Part shown: positions 7,719 to 64,000 of the stretch, piece after piece
How the letters are laid out: each line of letters begins with the position of its first letter
How positions within the stretch are numbered: the first letter of the stretch is position 1
Source: Heptranchias perlo
Lineage: Eukaryota
Length of the DNA: 64,000 nt
Direction of reading: 5' to 3'
Assembly (NCBI RefSeq): GCF_035084215.1
Contig: NC_090327.1
Coordinates: forward strand, 106,454,001 to 106,518,000
Program-made: the position numbers and the translations under genes
Notes under the pieces: model-generated
What the model saw: the letters and a program-made list of their open reading frames with translations, nothing else
What the model was told of the DNA's origin: nothing
Database searches by the model: none

Positions 7719-8469
7719 CTAAAACAGGATTAAAAGAAAATGAATGAAACTACCCTGGTATTTGATGTTCAAGACAAACTTTCACCTGGTTTCTATAACC
7801 TCAAATATGGTGGTGCAACCTATTTATATATGTCACTTATATAAAAAAAATACACATAACAGTGCTGCTTTACAAAAAAAATCACTTGATAATATTAGCA
7901 GACTGGTACAAATTTCGGGTGTGCACTAGATATTCTCTCAGATTCGACAGGAACGGTCTCTCCTATAGGTGGACCTACAATCAGGAGTTTACCTTTAATG
8001 CCAATGTAATCCCTTGTCGTGCGCACTGGATTCTGTACTACTGCACGTGTTCCTACTATCTTCCAGAAGGCATGCTGGTCAGCTCTCTAGTGAGGAAAAG
8101 CTAACTATAAACCAATAAGTTGATTTATTTTACATGTAACATGTGAACGAACAGAATAACATTTACTATGATTTTGAATCCATTTCATAATGCTCCTCAG
8201 ACATAGGAAATAACAAAGTATACCCGTTAACAGGCCGCTCTCACTTAACTGACTAGCAAATCTCAAAGTAGTCAGCCCTAATCTTTTAAAGGGAGTTCTT
8301 AGCCACTGTGTCTAACTTCCATTCCAGATTACTGCAGACTGTCTGTCCTTTCTGAGCTGGACAGGAAGCCAAAGGCTTGACCTTTGGCTGTCTTCCAGCT
8401 CTCCATGTCCAGAGATTGGCCAGTTGAGCCAACAATCAAACCGGTTACTACTATCCTACGTTTGGGCTT

Positions 8470-8547
8470 TGCTGACAGCTATCCTTGCTGGGCTCTGCTG
8501 ACAGCTATCCTTGCTGGGCTCTGCTGACAGCTATCCTTGCTGGGCTC
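8470..8547. repeat. Tandem repeat, 3 x 26 nt (tgctgacagctatccttgctgggctc)
   Basis: Three identical direct copies read from the sequence. Confidence 0.95.
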
Positions 8548-8902: not shown

Positions 8903-9134
8903 TCTCAGGATGTCCCAAAGCACTTTACAACCAATGAGGTACTTTTTGAAGTGTAATCACTGTTGTAACATAGGAAACACAGCAGCCAATTTGTGCACAG
9001 CAAAGTCCCTCTATTAGCAATGAGATAATAACCAGATGGTCTATTTGTTTTTAAGGTGTTGATTGAGGAATAAATATTGGCCAGGACAACAGGGAGAACT
9101 CCCAAGCTCTTCTTCGAAATACTGCCATGGGATA
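8903..9134 (-). mobile_element. Deu-domain SINE fragment (SacSINE1/AmnSINE1-like)
   Basis: Reverse complement is homologous to 38204-38420 (ccaatatttat..aaattggctgc..ggacatcctgag). Confidence 0.7.
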
Positions 9135-9179
9135 TTTAGATTTCCAGCATCCGCAGTAATTTGCTTTTGATTTGCCTTA

Positions 9180-10895: not shown

Positions 10896-11374
10896 TTTTC
10901 TCACAGGATGTGAGTAATGCTGATGAAGCTTCTCTTGTTGCCCTGTGAGGTTGATGGTGGGCCACCTTTTGCACTTCTGTCGTCCTTGTGGTGATGGTGC
11001 TTCCCCCAATGGTGTTAGGTAGGGAGTTCTGGGATTTTGATCCATTGATAATGAAGGAGTGACAATATATAACCTCAGTCTGGATGGTGTTGCAACTTTG
11101 AGGGGAAATTGAAAATGATGTTGCTCTCATTATATTACTCCTATTGTTCTTCTCGGTAGTAGAGGTCACAGGACACTGAGATGCCGTAGAAGCAAGATTG
11201 GTGAGTTTGTTAGCATTGCATCCTGTAGATAGTACAGACTGCAGTCACAGCACAATGGTGGTGGAAGGGTGGATATTGAGTTCAGTGATGTGGAGATGCC
11301 GGTGATGGACTGGGGTTGACAAATGTAAGGAATCTTACAACACCAGGTTATAGTCCAACTGTTTTATTTGAAAA

Positions 11375-11411
11375 TCACAAGCTTTCGGAGGCTTTCTCCT
11401 TTGTCAGGTGA
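11375..11411 (-). ncRNA. Minimal hammerhead ribozyme motif, core mutated (CUGACAA)
   Basis: UCAC-CUGACAA-A-GGAG AAAGC CUCC-GAAA-GC-UU-GUGA on the minus strand; G8>A change at a CpG. Confidence 0.65.
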
Positions 11412-12890
11412 GTGAGTGTGGGATTCCATGGAAGGTTACCGCATTCATATTCAGAGAACAATACCTGGTGATTACAGATAATCTTTCCAACTGCCCATTG
11501 TCAAGGCAATCAAAGTGTTCAGACAGAGTGATGTTACCGACAGGACCACCGAATACACATTTTCTTCCTATGGACCCATGGCGAAGAATCACTAAAGAGA
11601 CTACACGATAACATCAACAAGTTCCATCCCACCATCAAGCTCACCATGGACTACTCCTCAGAATCGGTTTCTTTCTTGGACACACGAATCTCCATCAAAG
11701 ACGGGCACCTCAGCACCTCACTCTACCGCAAGCCCACGGACAACCTCACGATGCTCCACTTTTCCAGCTCCCACCCTAACCACGTCAAAGAGGCCATCCC
11801 CTATGGACAGGCCCTGTGAATACACAGGATCTGCTCAGACAAGGAGGAACGCGATGGACACCTACAGACGCTGAAAGATGCCCTCGTAAGAACGGGATAT
11901 GACGCTCGACTCGTCGATCGACAGTTCCGACGGGCCGCAGCGAAAAATCGCATAGACCTCCTCAGAAGACTAACACGGGACGCAACCAACAGAGTACCCT
12001 TCGTCGTCCAGTACTTCCCCGGAGCGGAGAAACTACGCCATGCTCTCCGCAGCCTTCAACATGTCATCGATGACGACGAACTACTCGCTAAGGCCATCCC
12101 CACACCTCCACTACTCGCCTTCAAACAGCCACCCAACCTCAAACAGACCATCGTCCGCAGCAAATTACCCAGCTTTCAGGAGAACAGCGTCCACGACACC
12201 ACACAACCCTGCCACGGCAACCTCTGCAAGACATGCCAGATCATCGACACAGACACCACCATCACACGAGAGGACACCACCCACCAGGTACATGGTTCAT
12301 ACTCCTGTGTCTCGGCCAACGTTGTCTACCTCATATGTTGCAAGAAAGGATGCCCCTGAGCATGGTACATTGGCGAGACCATGCAAGCACTGCGACAACG
12401 GATGAACGGACACCGCGCAACAATCGCCAGACAGGAGGGTTCCCTCCCAGTCGGGGAACACTTCAGCAGTCAAGGACATTCAGCCACTGATCTTCGGGTA
12501 AGCGTTCTCCAAGGCGGCCTTCGAGACACACGACAACGCAAAATCGTCGAACAGAAATTGATAGCCAAGTTCCGCACCCATGAGAACGGCCTCAACCGGG
12601 ATCTTGGGTTCATGTCACGCTACACGTTACCCCACCAGTGAACAAATGTTATCTGTTTTTAACACAACGGGTCATTCGCTGTCTTTCTCTTCCTTTCGGA
12701 TGTTTCTCTCCCTCTCTCTCTCTGTTTTGTGTTCTGGCCGTTTGTGTATTCGGTGGTCCTGTAGGTAACATCACTCTGTCTGAACACTTTGATTGCCTTG
12801 ACAACGGGCAGTTGGAAAGATTATCTATAATCACCAGGTATTGTTCTCTGAATATAAATGCGGTAACCTTCCATGGAATCCCACACTCGC

Positions 12891-12927
12891 TCACCTGACG
12901 AAGGAAAAAGCCTCCGAAAGCTTGTGA
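12891..12927 (+). ncRNA. Minimal hammerhead ribozyme motif in Penelope pLTR
   Basis: UCAC-CUGACGA-A-GGAA AAAGC CUCC-GAAA-GC-UU-GUGA; one stem II mismatch. Confidence 0.75.
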
Positions 12928-13599
12928 TTTTCAAATAGAACAGTTGGACTATAACCTGGTGTTGTTAGATTCCTTACAATTCAGTTCAGTGGCAGGGCTT
13001 CAAACTGCTTTCCCTTAGATGATGAAACGCTTCTGGTTGCTTCAGCTGCATCCATGCAGAGGAGTGGTGAATATTCCATAACACTCCTGACTTGAGACTT
13101 GTAGAGTGCAGAGATACTTTGAGGGATAAAGGGTACCAAGTTTTGACTTGCTCTTGCAGGCACAGTATTGATATACTGGTCCAGTTCAGCTTTATCAATG
13201 ATGAGTCCCAAGAAGTTGATTATGGAGAACTCAGCAATAGTGGTGCCACTGAAGGTCAGGGGCAGATGGTTGAGCTTTTTCTTGTTGAAGATGGTAATTT
13301 GCTGGCACTAATGTGGCACGAATGTTATCTGCTTCTTGTCAGCCAAGCATGGATGCTGTTCAAGTCCTGTTGTAGGCCGGAAAGGGCTGTTTTATTATCC
13401 CGACTTCTTTCCCTACCTTGAAAAGACTTCCTAAAATTCATTTTTATGACCAAGCTTTTAGTCACCTCGCCTAGCTCTCCCACAATAGCTCAGCATCTGT
13501 TCCCTTTTTTTAAAAAAAAGCATCTATAAAGTGCCTGGAGACATTTTTCGATGATAAAGGTGCTTTATAATTACCAATTGTTGCAGTTGTTCATAATTT

Positions 13600-16500
13600 T
13601 TTAGCATACTCAAAGAATTAAAGATTCTCAAAGATGTAACAGGAAAACATCTAGAAACCAAAAGTACAATAAAGAATAGTCAGCACGGATTTCAAAAGGG
13701 AAGGTCATGCTTGACCAACCTTATTGAATTTTTTGAAGAAGTAACAGAGGGTAGATAAGGGTAATGTAGAAGATGTAATATATTTGGATTTTCAAAAGGC
13801 CTGGGATAAGGTAGTAGACTCATGACTAAGGTTAGAGCATGTGGGGTCAGGGGACAAATAGCAGAATGGATAGCAAGTTGGCTACAAAACAGAAAACAGA
13901 GAGTAGGTGTTAAAGGTAGTTACTCAAACTGGCAAAAGGTAGGAAGTGGTGTTCCAAAAAATTGGTGCTGGCACCACCGTTGTTCACAGTTTACATAAAC
14001 GATTTGGATTCAGGAATCGGAAGTACAATTTCAAAATTTGCAGACGACACCAAATTGGGGGGGTATAGTTAATACTGGGGAGGACTGTGACAAAATAAAG
14101 AAGATATTAAAAAACTTGCAGAATGGGCCTGTAATTGGCTAATCAATTTTAATATAGATAAGTGTGAGATGGTACGTTTTGGTAGGAAGAATAAGTTGGC
14201 CTCATAGTCCTTGGAAAATAAGAGTCTAATTGGGTAGAGGAGCAGAAGGATCTGGAGGTACAGATACGCAAATCACTAAAAGTAGTGATGCAAGTTAATA
14301 AGGCCATAAAAAAAAAAAAACAAAGCACTGGGGTTCATTTCTCGAGGGATAGAACTGAAAAGCAGGGAAGTTATGTTAAACTTGTAGAGAACCTTGGTTC
14401 GACCACACTTGGAGTACTGTGAACAATTGTGGTCTTCATATTACAAAAAGGATATATAGAGGCACTGGAAAAGGTGCAGAAAAGATTTACTAGGATGATA
14501 TCAGAAATGAGTGGTTATACCCATCAAAGCAGTGGGAGACATTCAAAGGGGTGATTCAGGGGTTCAGGGTAAACATGCTCCCACAAAGAAAAAGGGAGGG
14601 GCTGCCAAATCTAGAGCCCCCTGCATGTCAAGAAGCATTCAGGGTAAGATAAAGCAGAAAACGAAAGCCGATGATAGACACCGGGAACTCAAAACTATGG
14701 AAAGCTTAGAGGAGTATACAAAATGCAGGGGTGAAGTTAAAAAGGAAATTAGGAAAGCAAAGAGAGGGTATGAAAAAATATTAGCAGGTAAAATCAATGA
14801 AAACCCAAAGATGTTTTATAACTACATTAAGAGCAAGAGGATAACTAAGGAAAGAATAGGGCCTATTAGAGACCAAAAAGGTAAACTATGTGTCGAGGCA
14901 GAAGATATGGGTATGGTTCTTAATGAATACTTTGCATCTGTCTTTACAAAGGAGAGGGATGTGTAGGGATTGAAGTTAAGGAGGAGGAGTGTGAAATATT
15001 GGATGGGATAAACATAGTGAGAGAGGAAGTATTAAGGGGAAGTGCTTTGTTTTTTTTTATGGCCTTATTAACTTGCATCACTACTTTTAGTGATTTGTGT
15101 ATCGGTACCTCCAGATCCCTCTGCTCCTCTACCCAATTAGACTCACTTGAGCCAGATGAAATGTATCCCAGGCCGTTAAAAGAAGCCAGGGAGGAAATAG
15201 CAGAGGCTTTAACAATCATTTTCCAAACTTCACTGGATACAGGAGTAGTGCTGGAGGATTGGAGGACTGCTAACATTGTACCGTTGTTTAAAAAGGGAGC
15301 AAAGGATGGAACGGGTAATTACAGGCCAGTCAGCCTAACCTCGGTGGCGGGTAAATTATTGGAATCAATTCTGAGGGACAGGATAAACTGTCACTTAGAA
15401 AGGCACGGACTAATCAAGGACAGTCAGCACGGATTTGTTAAGGGAAGGTCGTGTCTGACTAACTTGATTGAATTTTTCAAGGAGGTGACAAGGAGAATCA
15501 ATGAGGGTAGCGCAATTGATGTAGTCTACATGGATTTTAAGCAAGGCTTTTGACAAGGTCCCACATGGCAGACTGGTCAAAAAAGTAAAGGCCCATGGGA
15601 TCCAAGGGAATGTGGCAAATTGGATCCAAAATTGGCTCAGTGGCAGGAAGCAAAGGGTAACGGTCCACGGGTGTTTTTGTGACTGGAAGGCTGTTTCCAG
15701 TGGGGTGGCGCAGGGCTTGGTACTAGGTCCTTTGCTTTTTGTGGTATACGTTAACGACTTGGACTTAAACGTAGGGGGCATGATTAAGAAATTTGCGGAT
15801 GACACAAAGATAGGCCGTGTAGTTGATAAAAAGCTATAGACTGCAGGAAGATATCAATGGACTGGTCAGATGGGCAGAAAAGTGGCAAATGGAGTTCAAC
15901 CCGGAGAAGTGTGAGGTAATGCATTTGGAGAGAGCAAACAAGGCAAGGGAATACCCAATAAATGGGAGGATACTGAAAGGTGTAGAGGAAGTGAGGGACC
16001 TTGGAGTGCATGTCCACAGATCCCTGAAGGTAGCAGGACAGGTAGATAAGGTGGTTAAGAAAGCATATGGAATGCTTTCCTTTATTAGCCAAGGCATAGA
16101 ATATAAAAGCATCGATGTTGTGCTGGAACTGTATAAAACACCAGTTAGGCCACAGCTTGAGTACTGTGCACAGTTCTGGTCACCACATTACAGGAAGGAT
16201 GTAATTGTACTAGAGAGGGTGCAGAGGAGATTTGCGAAGATGTTGCCAGGACTGGAGAATTTTAGCTATGATGACAGATTGGATAGGCTGGGGTTGTTTT
16301 CCTTGGAACAGAGGAGGCTGAGGGGTGATTTGATTGAGGTGTACAAAATTATGAGGGGCCTAGATAGAGTGGATAGGAAGGACCTATTTCCCTTAGCGGA
16401 GGGGTCAATAACCAGGGGGCATAGATTTAAAGTTTTTGGACTAAGGATTAGAGCAGAAATGAGAAAAAAATTTTCACCCAGAGGGTAGTGGTAGTATGGA

Positions 16501-23923: not shown

Positions 23924-24086
23924 CAGGTGAACGGTGTGGGTGAACGGTGTCCACACCGTTCACCTGACGAAGGAGGAAGCCTCCGAAAGCTTGTGGAATT
24001 TAAAATAAATTTGTTGGACTATAACTTGGTGTTGTAAAATTGTTTACAATTGTCAACCCCAGTCCATCACCGGCATCTCCACATCA
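23924..24086 (+). mobile_element. Penelope family-1 3'-end mini-copy with inverted 5' segments
   Basis: Ends in catctccacatca; caggtgaacggtgtgg is the reverse complement of the adjacent ccacaccgttcacctg. Confidence 0.8.
23960..23996 (+). ncRNA. Minimal hammerhead ribozyme motif, intact core
   Basis: UCAC-CUGACGA-A-GGAGG AAG CCUCC-GAAA-GC-UU-GUGG. Confidence 0.8.
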
Positions 24087-24124
24087 TAGTTCAATTATAG
24101 TTGGGAACAGAAATGAGAGGCAAA

Positions 24125-25220
24125 AACCTCCACCATTTCCAGCACAATGCCACACCAAACACATCTTCCCCTCCACTCCCCGGTCAGCATTCTGAAGGGA
24201 CCGTTACCTCCGTGATACCCTGGTCAACTCTTCCATCACCCCCAACACCTGCTCCCCTTCCTCCGGCACTGTCCCATGAAAGCGCAGGAGATATAACACC
24301 TGCCCGTTCACCTCCTCCCTTCCCACCATTCAGGACACCAAACACTCTTTCCAAGTGAAACAGCAATTTACTTGTACTTCTTCCAACTTAGTATACTGTA
24401 TTCGCTGCTCACAATGTGGTCTCCTCTACAATGGGGAGACCAACTGCAGATTGAGTGATCATTTTGCTGAGCAGCTCCGTTCAGTCCACAACTGTGGCCC
24501 TGAGCATCCGGTCGCTTGCCACTTTAATTATCCATCCCATTCTGATCTTTGACTTGGCTTTCTACACAGTTCCAATGAAGCTCAACGCAAGCTCGAGGAA
24601 CAGCACCTCATCCTTCTATTGGCCACTTTACAGCCTACCGGCCTTAAAATTAAGTTTAACAACTTTAGACCTTAATCACTGTTCTCATTATCTCTCGGAA
24701 GCAGGTACTGGTAATGGAGGAGGGCTGCATCAGACCCACTGGGAATGGAAGAGGTTTGGACTGGTGATTGGAGTGGGGATCCCCCATTGGTACACAGCCA
24801 TTGGGGTGGTTTGCGCCCCTGCGGTCTACCTGCATTTCTTCCGCCACATTCCTGGGCCACAGGAACAGTTTCCTCTTTGCCAGGTTTTCCTTGCTTCTCT
24901 GCTATTCTGCTGTAACCAGTTACAACTCCTCTGGACCCATCTTTTGTTTTTATACTTGTCTCATTATCATCTCCTTTTGCCTTACACCACATCACTTTTG
25001 TCATTTAATCACTCCTGCCCTCCACCCTTTCACAGACCTCTCTCCTTTGTTCTCTTCCTGCCCCTTTTCCCTGGCATTGCACTAGCTTAAAAGTTATTCC
25101 ACTCTAACACCTTCCAGTTCTGAAGAAAGTATCATTGACCTGAAACGTTGACTCTGTTTCTCTCTCCACAAATGCTGTCTGATCTGTTAAGTCTTTCCAG
25201 CATTTTCTGTTTTTATTTCA
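24125..25220 (+). mobile_element. Penelope family-2 3' fragment (GIY-YIG region plus tail)
   Basis: KQQFTCTSSNLVYCIRCSQCGLLYNGET..VACHFN; tail with hammerhead-like motif and ccagcattttctgtttttatttca end. Confidence 0.8.
25116..25153 (+). ncRNA. Degenerate minimal hammerhead motif (family 2)
   Basis: AGUU-CUGAAGA-AAGUAUCAUUGACCU-GAAA-CG-UU-GACU; stem II partly disrupted. Confidence 0.55.
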
Positions 25221-36456: not shown

Positions 36457-36549
36457 CAGATTTTGTAGCTTCAGTATTTAATGCATAGTGAGATAACACA
36501 CAGATTTTGTAGCTTCAGTATTTAATGCATAGTGAGATAACACACAGAT
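36457..36549. repeat. Perfect 44-nt tandem duplication
   Basis: cagattttgtagcttcagtatttaatgcatagtgagataacaca x2, followed by cagat. Confidence 0.95.
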
Positions 36550-37714
36550 AAAACAAGCAGTCACTTGTAATTTTCCAAAGGCAACAATCAAATAAACCAT
36601 AACAGTCTAAGGCTTTTAGAAGTCACAGTTTGCTTTTGGGAGGCATTTTGGATCTGAATTTCTATTTCGACTCCCTAATTTCTGTAGAGCTGCTGGTTTG
36701 ACAAAACTTGTACAGATTTTTTCCAGATCATTCAGTTTTTCTGGTTTTAGAAATAGCATGTGTTCTTGTACAGGGCACCGGAATGATGACTCAGAGGAGG
36801 TCAGAAAGTAGTAACTTGAACTCCCTTTGTCAGTGGGCAAATGGCCCATGTAGTGCAACACTAAACCACATAGACCATCAAGGTCCAAGGCTGCCTGACT
36901 TGCTGAGCTTCTCCAGCATTTTCTGTTTTTATTTCAGATTTCCAGCATCTGCAGTATTTTGCTTTTGATGCGGGATTCAATTACTGGTCTATACCGAGGC
37001 ATTCAATCCTAGTCAGGTGCCGCAATGAGCATCAGCCAAATACAGACCAGGGCTCCCCAGCCTCATAACTATCCAGAAACCGCTGTTGGAAGTGTGTACA
37101 CATCGAAAAGAAAGAGAACATTAGTTGGGCAGCCCACTGATAATCTGTGTCCATGTTTACATACAAAGAATAGTCGCATAGATAAAATGAAGTACTGAAC
37201 AGACCCCAGAATGAGTCACTACTTTCAAGAAAACGAAGAGCAAACAATTGGAGGGGATTAAAAAGACGTAACACCTTTTAGAGCATGGGTGACTGGACAC
37301 CGCACATGTTAACTCTATGACAAAGAGCAGGGAAATTGTACTAAATGTTAACTTCTATTGTCTTTGCATAGTTCTTGGAGCAAATCTTGTATGCGTCACC
37401 CTAGAACACTATCATAACTGGAGTCAGCAAGGTATCAGACCCATTGCTGGAAAAATGCACACTGCCTAGCCTTCAGAGGGACTTTACATAAGTTTCTCTG
37501 AAGAGTTGCCTCCACGGATCTAACGGTAAAATTTGTACTGAAAATGAAAGTTTCATCAAAATTCACATATTTTGCTTTGTTTTAAAACTGTTATTGCTCA
37601 TCAATACTTTAAACCATTTGTCCCTGATTGTTGCGCACTGTGACTATAATTCTTGTATTACTGTGGAACCCCGTTAAGTGCAAACATTTTACTGAACATA
37701 ATATTTATACTTAC

Positions 37715-40408: not shown

Positions 40409-40937
40409 CTAAATGGGCAACAAAAATAAATTACAAGTTTACAGGATAACATCATAAGATATAAGGTTATCTTTTTAAATGGTACACTAGTTCATTCAAC
40501 TCTTGACTGCTGGTATTTTTCACATGCATACTCCTGGCTTGCTGAACCATTTTGATATAAAATTATAACTGTGAAATCATGTACAATCTAATGCAACTCA
40601 TTATATTAAATAAAAAAACAAAGTAAAAGTCTTCAACTCTACTGTGAATAAATATACCTCATTAGTCTTATCAAACAGCACCACAATTCAGTAGTAAGTT
40701 TAAGAGTGGTTATGGCATTTTTTTTTTCACTTCAAAGTATAGATGCAAGTTGGATCAGTGTCTCAAAATGAATGCTGATATACAAGGATGCTTAGAGGTT
40801 CAAGAAAATATCACATTGTTTTCTGAAAATACCTATGATACAGAACCTAAATACAGAATCCAGGATATATCTCAATATAATACACATTCTATTTCAATAA
40901 TGAAAAGGCATGCAACAAAAACACTTATTTTCAGATA

Positions 40938-41093
40938 TGATGTGGAGATGCCGGTGATGGACTGGGGTTGACAAATGTAAAGAATCTTACAACACCAGGT
41001 TATAGACTCACCTGACGAAGGAGGTAATCTCCGAAAGCTTGTGATTTTCAAATAAAATTGTTGGACTATAACCTGGTGTTGTAAGATTCTTTA
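40938..41093 (+). mobile_element. 156-bp fold-back Penelope mini-element with 12-bp TSD
   Basis: TSD tattttcagata at 40926-40937 and 41094-41105; inverted arms ~40978-41005 and ~41066-41093. Confidence 0.88.
41008..41044 (+). ncRNA. Minimal hammerhead ribozyme motif, intact core
   Basis: UCAC-CUGACGA-A-GGAG GUAAU CUCC-GAAA-GC-UU-GUGA. Confidence 0.8.
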
Positions 41094-42629
41094 TATTTTC
41101 AGATACAATAACCTATCTGTAGTAACAACAAATAAAGTAACTGAAACAAAAATGTTTGAAAGTTGGCAATTTACAGTGCTTAGTCTATTTTAGAATTATT
41201 AATATCTTAGAATTATTCTTCAATTTCTTACATTTACAACCATGTCCTGGAAGAGTGTGCAGGAGTATCCCATGAGTAATGTGTTTCTCCCTCTCCCCTC
41301 TAGAATAGGCAGCTCTGGATCAACTTTCAGGCCAGTCTGAAGTGCTATCTTCCATTGAGATAAAGGAAGCTACTCCAGGACATACACAGTCCTGCTACAC
41401 AGTACATGTCACAGAGCAACTGAAGAGGGAAGCAGAGCTGGAATGGAGATTTTCGATGAAACGAGGAAAATGCATATTTCATAAATCTTGCATTGCATCT
41501 GGTGTGCAAGTCCATTTCACTTCAAAGTGTCAAAATTATATATAAAAAAAGAGTAAGCCAGACTTTACTGGCTTTTCCAATGTTGATAGACTCGCTACTC
41601 CCCAAGGACAAGAGCCAGGATTATCAAGAACATGCCAACCTTTAGAAACGTTCTCAATAAACAGCATCAGGACATGCAAGTTCCCAATAAGGAGTATCTG
41701 AGCAATGCCTTACAGAGACAGGCCATGTTAAGCAAAGCTCCACCTCAGTAGCGAAACATCACAACTCTCCTTCAGACCCAAACTACCTATGAGCAGCACC
41801 ATGGGAGGCGAGATATCAATCTATCTCATCTGCATGCACTTCTTTTCAACTTTTTACATTATGTCCACACATAACAGAAATTGCCTGTGTAAATTTGTCA
41901 TGCTGTAATTACACCATTGCCCCCCCTTGAGAGCGAGGGGGAAATGGATGAAGGGATGAGTCAGGTGACTTTTACAACAGGCTGAGGGGGAGGGAGGATA
42001 CAGGGGTTGAGTAAGTAGTTCAAAGGACAAGAGGTAAAGGTAGCACTAAAAGTGAGTAGCGATAGCAATGGAAGTGAGGGGGTCATTAGAACTGGAAGAC
42101 GTAGTAGAAAGGCAAAGGGATAGGGGAATAACAAGTAATAGGGGAGAGGAAGGGAAGGGACCAAGAGGATTACAGGCCTCATTTTCCCTGCAGCCCCCCC
42201 CCCAGTAGAAAATGTGGCCTTGAGCTTTCCGTGGCTCCTTTTCCTACCAGGCCATCAGTTCCCACAGAAAGGGTAGAGCAGAAAGGATAGAGAAGAAAAG
42301 ACGACTGGGAAAGTAGAAGAGGACAGAGAGAGAAGCAAAGAGAGTTAGGGAGAAAGAAAAGAGAAAAAGCGATTCAGAAGCAAAAGAGCAGAAACAGAGA
42401 GAAACAGCACAAGAGAGCACAGTAGTCTCTAACTTACTGTGTGTAAAGCAATGGGAAATAGTTTAGTATACAAGAATAAATCTTAAAACAGATCAGGTTG
42501 GGGAGGGGAATAGTTTGAACAAAAAAGCATTGCCTAGACTCTCCTTTCCCTTTAGTAATTTAGCTTGAGGTCTCACTAACAGAGCATTTCATTTGAAGAA
42601 TGTAATAAATGAAAGTTCAGGGATCTCAC

Positions 42630-50434: not shown

Positions 50435-50892
50435 CTATTGAACAAATAGATAGAAAGATCAAATAATTCTTCAGAGTTAAAAACAAGAAGATTATATTGC
50501 CAAAAAAGTGATCACAGCTATCAGACCAGGCTAATTATAAATAAGGTAGCTAATGTTCTTGGTGCATGTCAAGTTTGGTACATAGGTAGAATAGGAGTGG
50601 AATCACTTCAGTTCAAAGCTGCCATTTTGATAATGATTTGATTTTAAAATTGGACTTGTGAATGAAATCGTTCTAGTTATTATTAGAACTATTGAACATA
50701 CAACAGTAAATAAAAGGTGCTTTTTGTTTAGCTAAGTGCCTGACCTTTAACAGTTCAAATCATATTTGAACAATCGATTCAAAAGTGTTCAACTGCAAAA
50801 ACTAGTAAAGATTATCTTGCCTTGTAGACTCATCCTTCAGCTTGGAGGATTGTGATTTTAACAGGAGAAATTGATGAGAATATTACTGTACG

Positions 50893-53800
50893 TGATTGTG
50901 AAGGGTTTAGATAAAGTAAATAAAGAGAAACTGTTCCCATTGGTGGAAAGGTCGAGAACCAGAGGACACAGATTTAAGGTGATTGGCAAAAGAACCAAAG
51001 GCAACTTGAGGAAAAACTTTATTATGCAGCAAGTAGTTATGATCTGAAATGCACTGCCTGAATGGGTGGTGGAAGCAGATTCAATCATAGAATCATAGAA
51101 AGTTACGGCACAGAAGGAGGCCATTCAGCCCATCGTGTCCGTGTACGCCGAAAAAGAGCTATCCAGCTTAATCCCACTTTCCAGCACTTGGCCTGTAGCC
51201 CTGTAGATTACGGCACTTCAAGTGCACATCCAAGTACTTTTTAAATGAGTTGAGGGTTTCTGGCTCTACCATCCTTTCAGGCAGTGAGTTCCAGACCCCC
51301 ACCACCCTCTGGGTGAAAAATTTCTTCTCAGCTCCCATCTAATCCTTCTACCAATTACTTTAAATCTATGCCCACTGGTCACTGACCCCTCTGCTAAAAG
51401 AAATAGGTCCACCGTATCTCGTCCCGACTCTTCAATTATTCTCTTAAATTTCTCCTGTTAAAATCTCTATCCTCCAAGCTGAAGGATGAGTCTACAAGGC
51501 AAGATAATCTTTACTAGTTTTTGCAGTTGAACACTTTTGAATCGATTGTTCAAATATGATTTGAACTGTTGAAGGTCAGGCACTTAGCTAAACAAAAAGC
51601 ACCTTTTATTTCCTCTTCTATGTTTAAGAGTCCTAATAATAACCAAAACAATTTCATTATGCTTCAATTAAATCTCCCCTCAGCCTCCTTTGTTCCAAAG
51701 AAAACAATCCCAGCTTATCCAATCTTTTCTCACAGCTAAAATTCTCCAGCCCTGACAACATCCTCATAAATCTCCTCTGTACCCTCTCTAGTGCAATCAC
51801 ATCTTTCCTGTAATGTGGTGACCAGAACTGTACGCAGTACTCAAGCTGTGGCCTAACCAATGTTTTATACAGTTCTAGCACAACCTCCCTGCTCTAATAT
51901 TCTATGCCTCGGCTAATAAAGGAAAGTATTCCGTATCCCTTTTTAGCCACCTTATCTACCTATCCTGCTACCTCAGGGATCTGTGGACATGCACTCCAAG
52001 GTCCCTTTGTTCCTCTACACCTATCAGTATCCTCCCATTTATTGTGTACTCCCTTGCCTTGTTTGCCCTCCCCAAATGCATTACCTCACACTTCTCTGGA
52101 TTGAATTCCATTTGCCACTTTTCTCCCCACCTGACCAATCCATTGATATCTTCCTGCAGTCTACAGCTTTCCTCCTCACTATCAACCACATGGCCAATTT
52201 TTGTATCATCTGCAAGCTTCTTGATCAAGCCCCCTACATTTAAGTCCATATCATTAATATATACCACAAAAAACAAGGGATCTAGTACTGAGCCTTGCGG
52301 GACCCCAGTGGGAACAGCCTTCCAGTCGTAAAAACACTTGTCAACCATTACCCTTTGCTTCCTGCCACTAAGCCAATTTTGGATCCAACTTGCCACTTTC
52401 CCTTGGATCCCATGGGCTTTTACTTTTTTGACCAGTCTGCTGAGTGGGACCTTGTCAGTAGCCTTGCTAAAATCCATGTACACTACATCAAACGCACTAG
52501 CCTTATCGACCCTGCTTGTTACCTGTTCAAAAAATTCAATCAAGTTAGTCAGACACAACCTTCCCTTAACAAATCCATGCTGACTGTCCTTGATTAACCC
52601 GAGCTTTTCCAAATGATGATTTATGCAGTCCCTCAGAATCGATTCCAATAATTTGCCCACCACCGAGGTTAGACTGACTGGCCTATAATTACTCGGTCTA
52701 TCTCTTTTTCCCTTTTTAAACAACGGTACAACGTTAGCAGTCCTCCAATCCTCCGGCACCACGCCTCCCTTGCTTCTCTTAGCAGCCTGGGATAGATTTC
52801 ATCCGAGCCTGGAGAGTTATCTACTTTCAAAGATGCTAAACCCCTTAAAATACTTCCTCTCTCGCTATGCTTATCCCATTCAATATTTCACACTCCTCCT
52901 CCTTAACTACAATCTCTGCATCGTCCCCCTCTTTTGTGAAGACAGACACAACGTATTCATTAAGAACGATACCCACATCATCCGCCTACACACATAGGTT
53001 ATCTTTTCGGCCTCTAATAGGCCCTACTCTTTCCTTAGTTATCCTCTTGCTCTTTATGTATTTATAAAACATTTTTGGGTTTTCTTTAATTTTACTTGCC
53101 AGTACTTCTTCATGCTCTCTCTTTGCTTTCCTAATCTTCTTTTTAATTTCACCCCGGAATATTCTATACTCCTCTAGGCTTTCTGCAGTATTGAGCTCTT
53201 GGTGTCTGACATAAGCTTCCCTTTTTTGCCTTATCTTACCCTGTATGCTCTTTGTGGGAACACATTTACTCTGAACCCCTTGAATCTCCCCCTTGAATGC
53301 CTCCCACTGTTCTGACACTGATTTACCTTCAAGTAGCAGTTTCTAGTCCACTTTTGCTAAATCACTTCCCAGCCTTGTAAAATTGGCCTTTCCCCAATTT
53401 AGAATATTTACTCCTGTTCTTTGTCCTTTTCCATAACTATGCTAAATCTAACTGAATTATGATCACTATCACCAAAATGCTTTCCGACTGATATTCCTTC
53501 CACCTGCCCAGCTTCATTCTCTAAAACTAAATCCAGAACTGCCCCCCCACCCCTGTTGCGCCCTCTATACCTTTTGCACTGATTGCATCCCAGTTAATAT
53601 TAGGGTCGTTGAAATCCCCTACTATTACTGCCCTATTGTTTTTGCACTTCTCAGAAATTTGCCTACATATTTGCTCTTCTATCTCCCTCTGACTGTTTGG
53701 GGGTCTATAGTACACTCCAAGCAGTGTAACTACCCCTTTTTTGTTCTTTAGCTCAACCCATATGGCCTCATTTGATGATCCTTCTAACATATCATCTCAC

Positions 53801-54900: not shown

Positions 54901-55526
54901 AGGTAATGAATGAAATCAAGCTCCCTTTGTGGCTGGGCCCAAATAGTGTCAGCAGCTGTACCAAAATAAATGAGCCAAGGTTAGAGTGGCGACTAGTGAC
55001 CATCACAGTCATATTCATAGAAGGTGACATAGATCAACCTGAACTGACGTCCATGAGAACCTTTCAGTTGAGGTTGGTCTGTGGTCAAGACTTACGCTAA
55101 TTTATAATGACCTGCCGTCACAAAAAACGTGACTAATTTCCACAAATGGCTGATGCCCAAAGTGTCCCTATATACAACAGAAGAGCATCAAATAGGCATT
55201 CCTCAAAAATGCCTTAAAGGGTGGCTCCCCTATTATTCTCACCACAGGCATCCTTGAGCTATAACATGTGGGGATACTGGAATGTAGAAGAAATTAGATA
55301 ACCTCAGAATTTCAACCATTTAACTAGCGCACTGCCAATGCAGAAGTAAAGTGGCTCCTTTATCTAGAACCGGATCCCATATCTGTAATAAATCGATGAA
55401 GGACAAACCAATAATACAAATCATATCTGGCTAGAGATTTGCGTCAAATACTCCCAATCTAGTCAATTTCTTGTAATGGCTGTGGAATGCTATTATAGCA
55501 CAAGAAAAGATCCCGTTATTCTTTGC

Positions 55527-55975
55527 CAAAAGTAAAATATTGCGGGGATGCTGGAAATCTGAAATAAAAACAGAAGATGCTGGAAATACTCAGCAAGTCA
55601 GGCAGTGTCTGTGGAGAAAAAAAGTTAACGTTTCAGGTCAATGACCCTTCGTCAGAACTGGAAGTTGAAGATTAAACAGTTTTTAAGCAAGTACAGAGCC
55701 AGGAAAAGGGGGGAGAAAGGGGAGGGGAGGAAAGAACAAAAGAGAAGGTCTGTGATAGGGTGAGGGCAGGAGTGATTAAATGACAAAAGGGATGATGGTG
55801 TAAGGCAAGGAGGGTGGTAATGGGACAAGTAAAGAAACAAAAGATAGGTCTAGAGGAGCTGTAAATGGGAAGATCAGAACCATTACCAGCACTTGCTCTC
55901 TGAAAAAAAATGTGAGTAGTGGTTATGATTTGAAGTTATTGAAATCAACATGGAGTCCAGAAGGTTGTAAATTGA
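55527..55975 (-). mobile_element. Penelope family-2 3' tail
   Basis: Reverse complement is similar to 24630-24720 and 24920-25220. Confidence 0.78.
55623..55659 (-). ncRNA. Minimal hammerhead ribozyme motif, intact core, sense to RTTN
   Basis: AGUU-CUGACGA-A-GGGUC AUU GACCU-GAAA-CG-UU-AACU. Confidence 0.78.
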
Positions 55976-59714: not shown

Positions 59715-60028
59715 TGTGGAGATGCCGGTGATGGACTGGGGTTGACAATTGTAAATAATTTTACAACACCAAGTTATAGTCCAGCAATTTTATTTTAAAT
59801 TCACAAGCTTTCGGAGGCTTCCTCCTTCGTCAGGTGAACGATGTGAAAATGAAATCCTCGAAATGAAATCGCATTTATAATTCACAGAACAATGCTTGGT
59901 GAGTACAGACAGTTTTTTCAACTGCCCGTTGCCAAGGCAATCAGTGTGCAGACAGACAGGTGTTACCTGCCAGGTCTCACAGAATTCTGTGACAACTGTC
60001 TGTACTCACCAAGCATTGTTCTGTGATT
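59715..60028 (-). mobile_element. Penelope family-1 pLTR copy with 5' inversion and 12-bp TSD
   Basis: TSD tatattgaatgg at 59703-59714 and 60029-60040; 59994-60026 is an inverted copy of 59882-59914. Confidence 0.87.
59800..59838 (-). ncRNA. Minimal hammerhead ribozyme motif, intact core, sense to RTTN
   Basis: UUCAC-CUGACGA-A-GGAGG AAG CCUCC-GAAA-GC-UU-GUGAA. Confidence 0.82.
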
Positions 60029-61349
60029 TATATTGAATGGCGAAGCAGACTTGAGGGGCTTAATACCTATTCCTGTTCCTTTGTAAGTGGTAGTCAAAAT
60101 AACTCAGATGAGATAGTATGCAAATGACAGTAAGCACACCTCAGTAACAGGAAGTGGAATAACAACTATTAGAGGACAATGAAAATAGTCATAAAAGTGG
60201 GGTTCTTACATCCTAATTATCAGTTCAAGTGCAACATATATGCTGATAGTGGTGTTTCTCACACACATGAAACAGAAGTTGCATAACCAGCCTATTTTTC
60301 TGAAGTCCAGGTTAACAATTCCACTGACATGTACAATTTTGAGTACCTCGATGCCATTAAATAGCAACAGATGAAAGTACAAGGAAATAATGGGAGAAAA
60401 AAAAATCACAAAACTATAGTTTAAATATCCTAGGAACAGTATTAATTAATTATTCAGGACTGAATTTTGCCACGTTACAAGCTGGGATTGTTATAAAATA
60501 AGAACAGAAAATGCTGGAAACACTAAGCAAGTCGGGTAGCATTTGTAAAGAAAGGAATGCATTTTCTGTTTTTGCTTCAGATTTCCAACATCTGCAATAT
60601 TTTATTTTCTGTGAACACTGTGGTTGTGTGCAGTTCCATTCTTTCTGTAGACTTGATAAATTTGTGACATCAGAAAACTCATCTAAGGTATTCTGTCTAA
60701 TAAGTGGAATTCACGGGAAAAATGTTGAGTTTAAAATATAACTGCTTGTGTGCCACATGTAGCCCAGTTTTTCATACAATATTTGGTTGACCCTGGCCAC
60801 AAAGAGTGGGCCATTCAGCTGCTCTCCCTTGCTCACTGATGCACCACAAGTTATATGGGCTGAAGTGAAATCCAAAAAAAAGCATTGCAGTAAAATGTAT
60901 GCACTGCAACGCGGTGCAAATGTTGTTTTGGAAGGGAACTCTGCTGCAAGTGGTGAACTTCTGCACAAGTATCCACTGAAACTTACTGAATATAAATGGC
61001 CTGTGGCAAATTTAAGCATTATATTCTAATGTCAAAAAAGTTTGTCTCTTGTTCTGCAACCTGAGTCTAATAAGAGTTGCATATTTAATTCCCCTCATCG
61101 AAGATGAGTAAATAACGTGGCAACATGTGATGCATTGAAGTAAATGAGAATACAGTGGCAAGGCTTCTATGTTAGATGTAGTGAAGCTCATGGATCAAAG
61201 TATTAGGCAGATAAGGAAACACACTGGTTCACTGGGGTGCAAAGTCCATTTATGGTAATGGCCATCAAAACTGAACCCAAGTGGTATATCTCTTGTAAAA
61301 ACCTAAAACTTGAACAGGTTTGACTTCACAATCATATAGTTAAACCTAC

Positions 61350-62390: not shown

Positions 62391-64000
62391 TCCCTCCTGC
62401 TTAGGTCTGACTCCCAACTATGAAGCACCCTGGGACATTTTGCTATGTGAAAGGTAAATCATAAATGCAAGATGTTCCTCTTACAAATCAATTCAATAGA
62501 AAGATTGACAAAACACTAAATCTATTGATTACGTAAGTCAATAAATAATTGAAAACTGATTTCTCTCCTGGTTTGACTCCATCATAGTTTACTACAGAAG
62601 TACAAACAAAAAATATGGAAAATGCTGGAAATATGACATTTTAAAAACACAGAAAATACTGGAAAAACACAGATCCATTAACATTTAAAAAGATAGACTA
62701 ACATTGCAGAAATCATAGAACATCTATTCTCTTTTCAGATGCTGACACACCTGCTGTGCACACCCAGCATTTTCAGTTTTTACTTCAGAAATAGTTTCTC
62801 TTCATCTTTTGACTCGGGGTCACAAAATTATCAATAAATTAAACATCTCCTCTTCTCTAAAAGCGAACTAAATCAGTAATCAATTGAAAAATAATCTTTA
62901 CATCTCCCTCCTGATTCCATCAATAATTAAGTATCTCTATGAGATTAATGATGTCTCCCTTTATTTCCAATTAATTCTACAACCAATTAGTAAATAATTG
63001 TCCCTTAGTTCCAACAAACAAGTATTTTCTCTAGTGATTAAATAATTATTCCCTGGATTTGAATAAATTGCTAAATGCTTTAAATGAGCAAATCAAAATC
63101 GTTGCTTGGTATCCTAGTATTTTAATATTGCCACCTATCATTTCTTCGATTTTTGTTTTCGTTTTATGGACGACACAAATTGTTGGTACAATATAGTTCA
63201 CTTACTGTCGCCTATATTTAATAAATTTGTCATTTTCCTTTTTGTTGCTGTCAGACAATACAAGCAGTCATAAAAGTCAGCTCTGTATGGCTCAGGTGAA
63301 TTAACCAAATAAATTGGCCAACAAAGAAATATTGATTCAGTTTTTATGTACTTTCCTGTTGAAGTTGAATTCTTTATCTTTGCATCAGTAGGCTGAGTCT
63401 GACGAGGTCTCCTCGGTTTAATGCTCTTCCATTTCTAAATCCCTCCTACCTCCACTTCAGGCTATAGTGCCATGGCCAATTACTACCCCATTTTCCAGTT
63501 CTTCCCCTCGCATCCTATTTCTCCCCAATCAATCTGCAGCTTTTGTGGATTCTCCTCATCTTGTAAATCCATTTTGAGTTTATGCACATTTTCCTTAAGA
63601 AGGAGATAAATCTACTCTATTACACCTGAACAAAGTAAGTCGAAGTTAAGCTGTTATGTGGAAAGAAGCGTAAACCCCCTCCAACAAGCGCGAGGAGCTT
63701 ATGGACTTCGTCACTAAGATTGAGACCATCCGTTCAGCTGCCTCTGCCGCTTCCCTCCCTTCCCTTAGTCCACCAAGCCAAACTTACGCTAAGGATCCCC
63801 CCTACCCTAGCTCCGAACTCGCAGCTTTCTCTATTTTCTCTCCTCTCCCCACTCATCTTGTCCATACGACCCACTGTCTGCTCCCTCAAACCTATTTCCT
63901 CAGATCAGATATGATCTCATTAAATGGCGGAGCAGACTCGAGGGGACAAATGGCCGACTCCTGCTCCTATCTCTTATGGTCCTCCACACACCAAACTGCT

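Follow-up and report, generated by a model that had tools for sequence, protein, structure and literature searches.

In L1 twin priming, two target 3'-OH ends prime two cDNAs, and the outcome is an inverted, truncated insert within a TSD. Insertions of Penelope-like elements (PLEs) are described as having an adjacent inverted, 5'-truncated copy and a tail of 30-40 bp at one end (PMC8557442; PMC3846280), with TSDs of 8-10 bp (PMC3846280), and this combination of inverted copy and tail has been used as a curation feature (PMC8969392). For the Poseidon PLE of the anole, PMC11167929 reports that the purified protein cuts and extends both target strands, that it prefers ATT motifs in AT-rich DNA, that two RT start sites bound the tail, and that hammerhead cleavage is dispensable. 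An account of the inverted PLE copies by two-strand priming was found neither in the main text of PMC11167929 nor among the papers that a literature search listed, a weak negative; PMC3846280 proposes instead self-priming on an antisense template. Between RT and EN, PLEs of the Neptune and Nematis clades are marked by a CX2-5CxxC linker (PMC8557442), and the minimal hammerhead of PLEs is described as needing a dimer, monomer cleavage being absent (PMC4209133).

We analyzed a short fold-back insert within the window, that is, the whole stretch of 64 kb of shark DNA under study. The insert consists of two ends of an abundant PLE of sharks, one with and one without the tail, joined head to head within a 12-bp TSD. 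It is most probably a dead-on-arrival product of two short cDNAs that were primed from both nicked target strands and then joined. Its anatomy is directly observed (positions are those of the window):

40926..40937, forward strand: left copy of the TSD, 12 bp; its final A fits the element too, leaving the border ambiguous by 1 nt
40938..40977, reverse strand: PLE tail of 40 nt, which the other end lacks; its sense strand is 67.5% A+C
40978..41005, reverse strand: left arm, the final 28 nt of the pLTR, inverted
41005..41006, no strand: head-to-head junction, blunt, with neither microhomology nor palindrome when both parental continuations are compared with it
41008..41044, forward strand: predicted minimal type I hammerhead
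41045..41065, forward strand: spacer of pLTR sequence that separates the hammerhead from the right arm
41066..41093, forward strand: right arm, the final 28 nt of the pLTR in forward orientation, without tail
41094..41105, forward strand: right copy of the TSD; four of its first five letters match the element continuation, possibly a priming microhomology

The TSD, TATTTTCAGATA, is 12 bp long and identical at 40926-40937 and 41094-41105; by the same procedure, an exact repeat of at least 12 was found at 1 of 3,000 random position pairs in a null scan. Between its copies lie 156 bp (40938-41093). The left 68 nt (40938-41005) are the reverse complement of the family 3' end, comprising the 40-nt tail and 28 nt of pLTR, and are identical to the left end of a 1.7-kb element (11286-11353) at 67 of 68 positions. 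The remaining 88 nt (41006-41093) represent the pLTR end in forward orientation; compared with that of the 1.7-kb element, they agree at 80/88 positions for its left arm and 77/88 for its right arm. Only short stop-to-stop frames overlap the insert. The original prediction had described a 12-bp TSD around a 156-bp insert, with 68 nt of inverted PLE 3' end completed by a forward pLTR end and without coding sequence, a miniature of the 1.7-kb element at 11286; all of this was borne out, the last point by the end matches and by the same architecture. It had also placed arms of ~28 bp around the ribozyme. The arms (40978-41005 and 41066-41093) do form a perfect 28-bp inverted repeat, but they are not terminal: the left arm begins 40 nt inside the insert, and inverted repeats therefore do not stand at both termini. 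A MITE or TIR element was rejected on the same ground. As RNA (plus strand), the 156-nt insert folds at -63.7 kcal/mol (z = -8.7), and none of 200 shuffles folded as well. A Pfam search of two candidate frames of the window found no host gene.

The parent family is represented in the window by the 1.7-kb copy and two further copies:

11286..12981, forward strand: 1.7-kb copy with inverted tail and pLTR (274 nt), the 3' part of the ORF, and pLTR; 13-bp TSD with one mismatch
23924..24087, forward strand: fourth copy, of a second subfamily, with forward hammerhead, pLTR end and tail; starts ~9 nt upstream of stem I and is preceded by a 16-bp local fold-back
59715..60026, reverse strand: third fold-back copy, of the second subfamily, with ~270 nt of inverted tail and pLTR and a short internal forward piece; 17-bp TSD with one mismatch

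Translated, the ORF part of the 1.7-kb copy is interrupted by one in-frame stop and shows a CX4CX2C linker as well as a VVY...YIG (GIY-YIG-like) region. A search with the window ORF, made among longer proteins, gave 34 matches, all of which were examined; the best were shark proteins of 80-93% identity. The ORF remnant is 93% identical to the shark proteins P0001 and P0002, which pass the RVT_1 cut-off, while the window fragments themselves had no Pfam match at E 0.01. The Pfam GIY-YIG model reached only a subthreshold score (21.7 bits against a cut-off of 22.6) on the homologue P0003 and did not match P0001 or P0002. Judged by its linker and protein identity, the parent is classed as a Neptune/Nematis-type PLE of sharks. 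Among the matches, shark gene models annotated as NOXP20-like, cytochrome P450 2C31-like and IFIT5-like (P0015, P0025, P0031) hold pieces of the PLE ORF and are probably annotation chimeras.

In three of the four family copies in the window, a TSD encloses a tail-bearing piece in inverted orientation and a tail-less one in forward orientation, and each copy has a junction of its own; the architecture of the insert is directly seen to recur with other junctions and is the usual one for the family. The TSDs of the three are 12, 13 and 17 bp long, the last two with one mismatch, and all have ATT inside their first five letters; for the 24-kb copy (23924..24087) no TSD was found, the best candidate being 5 bp. 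The tail is 40 nt long in the insert and 35 nt in the 1.7-kb copy, whose long arms (239 bp, 96%) differ at 10 of 239 positions as against 0 of 28 in the insert. The junction of the 59.7-kb copy is a 16-bp perfect palindrome (59977-59992). After this palindrome, the copy continues with a 33-bp internal pLTR piece (within 59977-60026) that ends at a nonstandard position with microhomology to the 17-bp TSD. The inverted pieces of the 1.7-kb and 59.7-kb copies, which are of different subfamilies, stop within ~5 nt of each other (11559 and 59985), ~145 nt upstream of the hammerhead, possibly at a discrete RNA 5' end. At 23924-23966, two short antisense copies of the 24-kb copy's own first 10-16 nt precede its 5' end (16-bp inverted repeat; TRF period 13), which looks like repeated copying of the template's 5' end, located just upstream of stem I.

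The window contains further repeats and duplications. A second repeat family, probably another PLE family, shows 3' ends of two alternative kinds, remnants of short fold-backs and, at 25120 and on the minus strand at 55655, a core resembling a minimal hammerhead; two of its members (60496-60612 and 62606-62792) are similar short, older fold-backs. Its locations are:

24905-25220, 55515-55879, 36887-36965, 60496-60612, 62606-62792 and 9133-9171: second repeat family

Inverted duplications of non-PLE sequence, with halves a few hundred bases apart, lie near CR1-like LINE remnants at 50661-51658 (222 nt, 94%) and 14222-15144 (99 nt, 96%), and young tandem duplications are found at 36457-36549 (44 nt x 2.1, 100%) and 8463-8547 (26 nt x 3.3, 98%).

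The hammerhead was originally called intact. All core positions are indeed kept: stem I (41008-41011/41041-41044) and stem II (41020-41023/41029-41032) each have 4 bp, the CUGACGA core lies at 41012-41018 with an extra A (41019) after A9, and GAAA follows at 41033-41036. The motif is of the minimal type only, however, for a palindromic AGCU (41036-41039) takes the place of helix III, and A15.1 and U16.1 stand only 2 nt apart, leaving no helix III stem; the cut is predicted at 41040|41041. At the gathering score, Rfam gave no match in the whole 64-kb window. Within the 156-nt fold, stems I and II have pairing probabilities of 0.74-0.98, showing that the arms leave the hammerhead motif standing, and helix III is predicted to be unable to form in cis. 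A modeled active dimer reached -16.3 kcal/mol, two monomers reached -18.8 and a different dimer -27.0, in a model without tertiary or protein terms that is uninformative on activity. The base beside the outer pair of stem I differs between the two subfamilies of the window, with pairing kept or extended. The core of the insert is also more intact than both hammerheads of the 1.7-kb element (11380-11406 and 12895-12921), the inverted arm of which has G8 changed to A and the forward arm of which has lost a stem II pair. The layout is the one that Cervera and de la Pena (2014, PMC4209133) described for minimal type I hammerheads in metazoan PLEs, with a helix II of 4 bp compared with 6-8 bp in the schistosome and Drosophila motifs described there. 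The predicted hammerhead would be a passenger from the parent pLTR, and cutting would need a second copy or help from a protein.

We considered contigs of four of eight runs aligned to 40716-41315 at 85% likeness, two taken to be DNA (X1, X2) and two taken to be RNA (X5, X6). Both assignments are guesses, that of X5-X8 to RNA with shares of 0.08-0.11 and with none of the runs listed being recorded as RNA, and X1, X2, X5 and X6 are one sample, possibly the window's own source. Flank depth was ~11-16, reaching 25 in single bins, and arm depth 1-5 million; the arms thus had ~240,000-410,000 times the flank depth, a ratio of summed contig depths and not a copy number. The parent PLE is abundant in the shark genome. 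Loose ends with unlike flanks were found at 40937 in 94 contigs each of X1 and X2, and at 41098 or 41093 in 70 contigs of X1 and 66 of X2; that so many contigs with unlike flanks stop at these positions identifies both outer ends of the insert as standard termini of the family. Both borders between flank and insert were present in single-copy contigs in X1 and X2. Beside the tail (before 40937), the loose-end consensus has the same five final letters in X1, X2 and X5, which suggests that the full element continues beyond the tail into ATG. The 20 flank bins were uncovered in X5 and X6, and these runs give no evidence on expression.

None of the 16 DNA pieces listed, out of a set with 37,520 more, crossed the internal junction at 41005|41006, and the longest repeat pieces among those listed, of 69-79 nt, stopped at the junction or started after it. 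Depth at 41006 was 213,712 in X1 and 164,507 in X2, or ~4% of arm depth, which is an upper bound for the exact junction and includes contigs merely beginning there. Among 15 of the 52 joints, 12 were in DNA runs, all of them different and with depths of 10.8-74.6, and three were in RNA-guess runs only; nine of the 12 DNA joints were near-perfect short hairpins with sides of 20-36 nt, to which alignment effects from the two arms may contribute. Similar fold-backs have scattered junctions at ~1-6 times single-copy depth. A junction 2 nt shorter and different at five other letters had a depth of 83.8 (two contigs) in X2, 0 in X1, 259.5 in X5 and 310 in X6, on a piece with 28 letters on its left, below the 31-letter bridging rule. 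Its presence indicates that near-identical minis exist, and its 2-nt TC microhomology would explain recurrent independent joining. The listed pieces are apparently ordered by aligned length and, if so, an old, diverged family of minis is unlikely; a young, uniform one would break into short contigs and could hide. An empty-site joint was absent among the 15 of 52 joints, and the left-flank contig ran unbroken through the TSD (contigs drop variants). The family motifs had no matches in viral contigs, metagenome contigs or prokaryote genomes, collections that hold no shark genome as such and are silent on copy number. In both X1 and X2, a contig of single-copy depth skips 40961-41009, suggesting an even smaller fold-back elsewhere, of ~107 bp and with the hammerhead core retained.

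By these observations, the 156-bp insert is likely a one-off, and we are confident that it is a truncation product and not an amplified unit. Of the two origins initially offered, an extremely truncated PLE insertion is supported by the anatomy, the parent matches and the contig junction data. The other, a nonautonomous, retrozyme-like unit mobilized in trans, was not upheld, given the single minimal hammerhead, the lack of a tandem, similar minis with scattered low-depth junctions, and the lack of a piece across the junction among the 16 DNA pieces listed.

As the route of formation, we favor two-strand priming and consider it likely, with a model borrowed from a Poseidon-clade enzyme while the family of the insert belongs to the clade with the CX4CX2C linker. 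The GIY-YIG endonuclease of an autonomous copy would nick both target strands, 12 nt apart. The top-strand 3'-OH would prime reverse transcription at the tail end and the copying would stop after 68 nt; the bottom-strand 3'-OH would prime at the pLTR end, 35-40 nt upstream, with a stop after 88 nt, 2 nt past stem I. Host repair would then join the two cDNA ends bluntly. The right cDNA runs through the predicted cut site, so its template would have been uncleaved or religated there. That both pieces share 28 identical letters suggests a tandem RNA or a pair of templates with a single source.

An alternative reading starts from a longer inverted PLE insertion, which resembled the 1.7-kb copy or arose as a self-primed hairpin cDNA (Arkhipova et al. 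2013); a later deletion, or repair driven by a hairpin, would have removed its middle and left the two ends. We consider this reading improbable. The family does have long inverted arms (239 bp, 96%), and palindromic junctions occur in the window (59977-59992) and in rotifer copies (PMC3846280). The junction of the insert, however, is blunt, without microhomology or palindrome; 60 nt of the forward piece are missing from the inverted piece, for which a plain single hairpin needs a deletion; and the forward piece starts at the edge of stem I, near the start of the 24-kb copy. Self-priming fits the palindromic junction at 59977-59992 better and does not fit the blunt one of the insert. A small nonautonomous family, in which the fold-back unit is transcribed and reinserted in trans by the parent PLE protein, appears distinctly improbable. 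The 2-nt-shorter junction reaches ~6 times single-copy depth in X2 and is present in both RNA-guess runs, X5 and X6, the hammerhead core of the insert is more intact than either in the 1.7-kb element, and PLE cis-sequences alone can mobilize cargo in trans (PMC3846280). Against such a family stand the 16 listed DNA pieces, none of which crosses the junction, and the scattered, low-depth junctions of similar minis; the shorter variant differs at five other letters and is not a copy of the 156-bp insert. Moreover, nothing of the element lies beyond the tail in the insert, although the anole enzyme requires RNA downstream of the start sites (PMC11167929), and the arms would lock the pLTR end in a hairpin of -63.7 kcal/mol.

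That the insert is the monomer of a non-LTR retrozyme, replicating via a hammerhead-processed circular RNA, is very improbable. Its hammerhead is of type I, an origin from the PLE pLTR has been proposed for animal retrozymes, and its size is within the range reported for them (10.64898/2026.07.22.740005), but it has one hammerhead, with no tandem at the insert among nine TRF rows, and that hammerhead lacks helix III and is of the type for which PMC4209133 describes no monomer cleavage. The ends of the insert are, furthermore, PLE termini and not those of a unit from cut site to cut site, and 44% of it is inverted. We give hardly any credence to the junction being an assembly artifact by collapse of a longer inverted repeat: inverted PLE structures trouble assemblies (PMC8557442) and the internal junction is absent among the 16 DNA pieces listed, but single-copy contigs of X1 and X2 contain both flank-insert borders, the two TSD copies are identical, and further short fold-backs occur as contig joints.

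One lead concerns the truncation points. The forward piece of the insert starts 2 nt before stem I and that of the 24-kb copy ~9 nt before it. Four of the 15 joints (15 of 52) resumed at 41041-41043, at the predicted cut site, compared with 0.6-0.7 expected if uniform (P ~0.003-0.005), a count for which the width of the interval was chosen afterward and the rows were preselected; a single RNA-guess run supplied two of the four, the sides of which are 3-4 letters apart. In the DNA runs, the agreement of loose ends was 0.43-0.46 before 41006 and 41008, against 0.36-0.40 at true termini, and these loose ends cannot tell truncation points from upstream pLTR because the reference homology ends there. 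Truncation points may cluster at hammerhead landmarks, namely the stem I edge and the predicted cut site. More broadly, and as a tentative and somewhat doubtful proposition, the fold-back minis of this very numerous shark PLE could be a genome-wide fossil record of the PLE reaction: two-strand-primed cDNAs from two RT start sites, with stops piled at the stem I edge (the insert, the 24-kb copy and the joints at 41006-41010) and at the predicted cut site. If true, this would explain the long-puzzling form of an inverted copy plus one tail, and in vivo the ends of templates would be set by the minimal hammerhead, an effect not observed in the anole system; if the stops cluster genome-wide, an in vivo role of PLE hammerheads is testable from assemblies alone.

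The single locus, one among very many truncated ends of PLEs, matters little. What makes it valuable is that, as a clean and minimal example, it connects the two RT start sites defined in vitro with the inverted-plus-tail form of genomic copies. Such minis could be misannotated as MITEs or retrozymes.

Among described systems, the insertion units of EN+ PLEs (PMC3846280; Craig 2021, PMC8557442) have in common with the insert the head-to-head inverted pLTR ends, the tail at one end, the TSD and the pLTR hammerhead, and their parents, like that of the insert, have an RT as well as a GIY-YIG-like region at the C-terminus, a candidate one in the case of the insert's parent. The insert differs from them in its extreme truncation (68 + 88 nt), the lack of an ORF remnant and a blunt junction without the rotifer-type palindrome. 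The Poseidon element PAc of Anolis carolinensis (Frangieh 2024, PMC11167929) shares the two termini bounding the tail, an AC-rich tail, AT-rich targets with ATT and cDNA through an uncleaved hammerhead; it belongs to a different clade, the CX4CX2C linker being that of the insert's family. Animal non-LTR retrozymes (PMC7229834; 10.64898/2026.07.22.740005) are, like the insert, noncoding and PLE-related, with a type I hammerhead and a long TSD. They form head-to-tail tandems with mostly canonical hammerheads and have linear and circular RNA, whereas the insert consists of one inverted unit whose only hammerhead is minimal; for this reason, together with the lack of a tandem and its PLE termini, we do not class it as a retrozyme. 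The outcome of L1 twin priming resembles it in arising from two primers and in being inverted and bounded by a TSD. In the insert, by contrast, 28 nt are common to the two pieces, each of which starts at a fixed terminus of the family; this speaks for a tandem RNA or two templates rather than for neighboring stretches of a single RNA. In this company, the insert is an ordinary extreme of the known form of PLE insertion.
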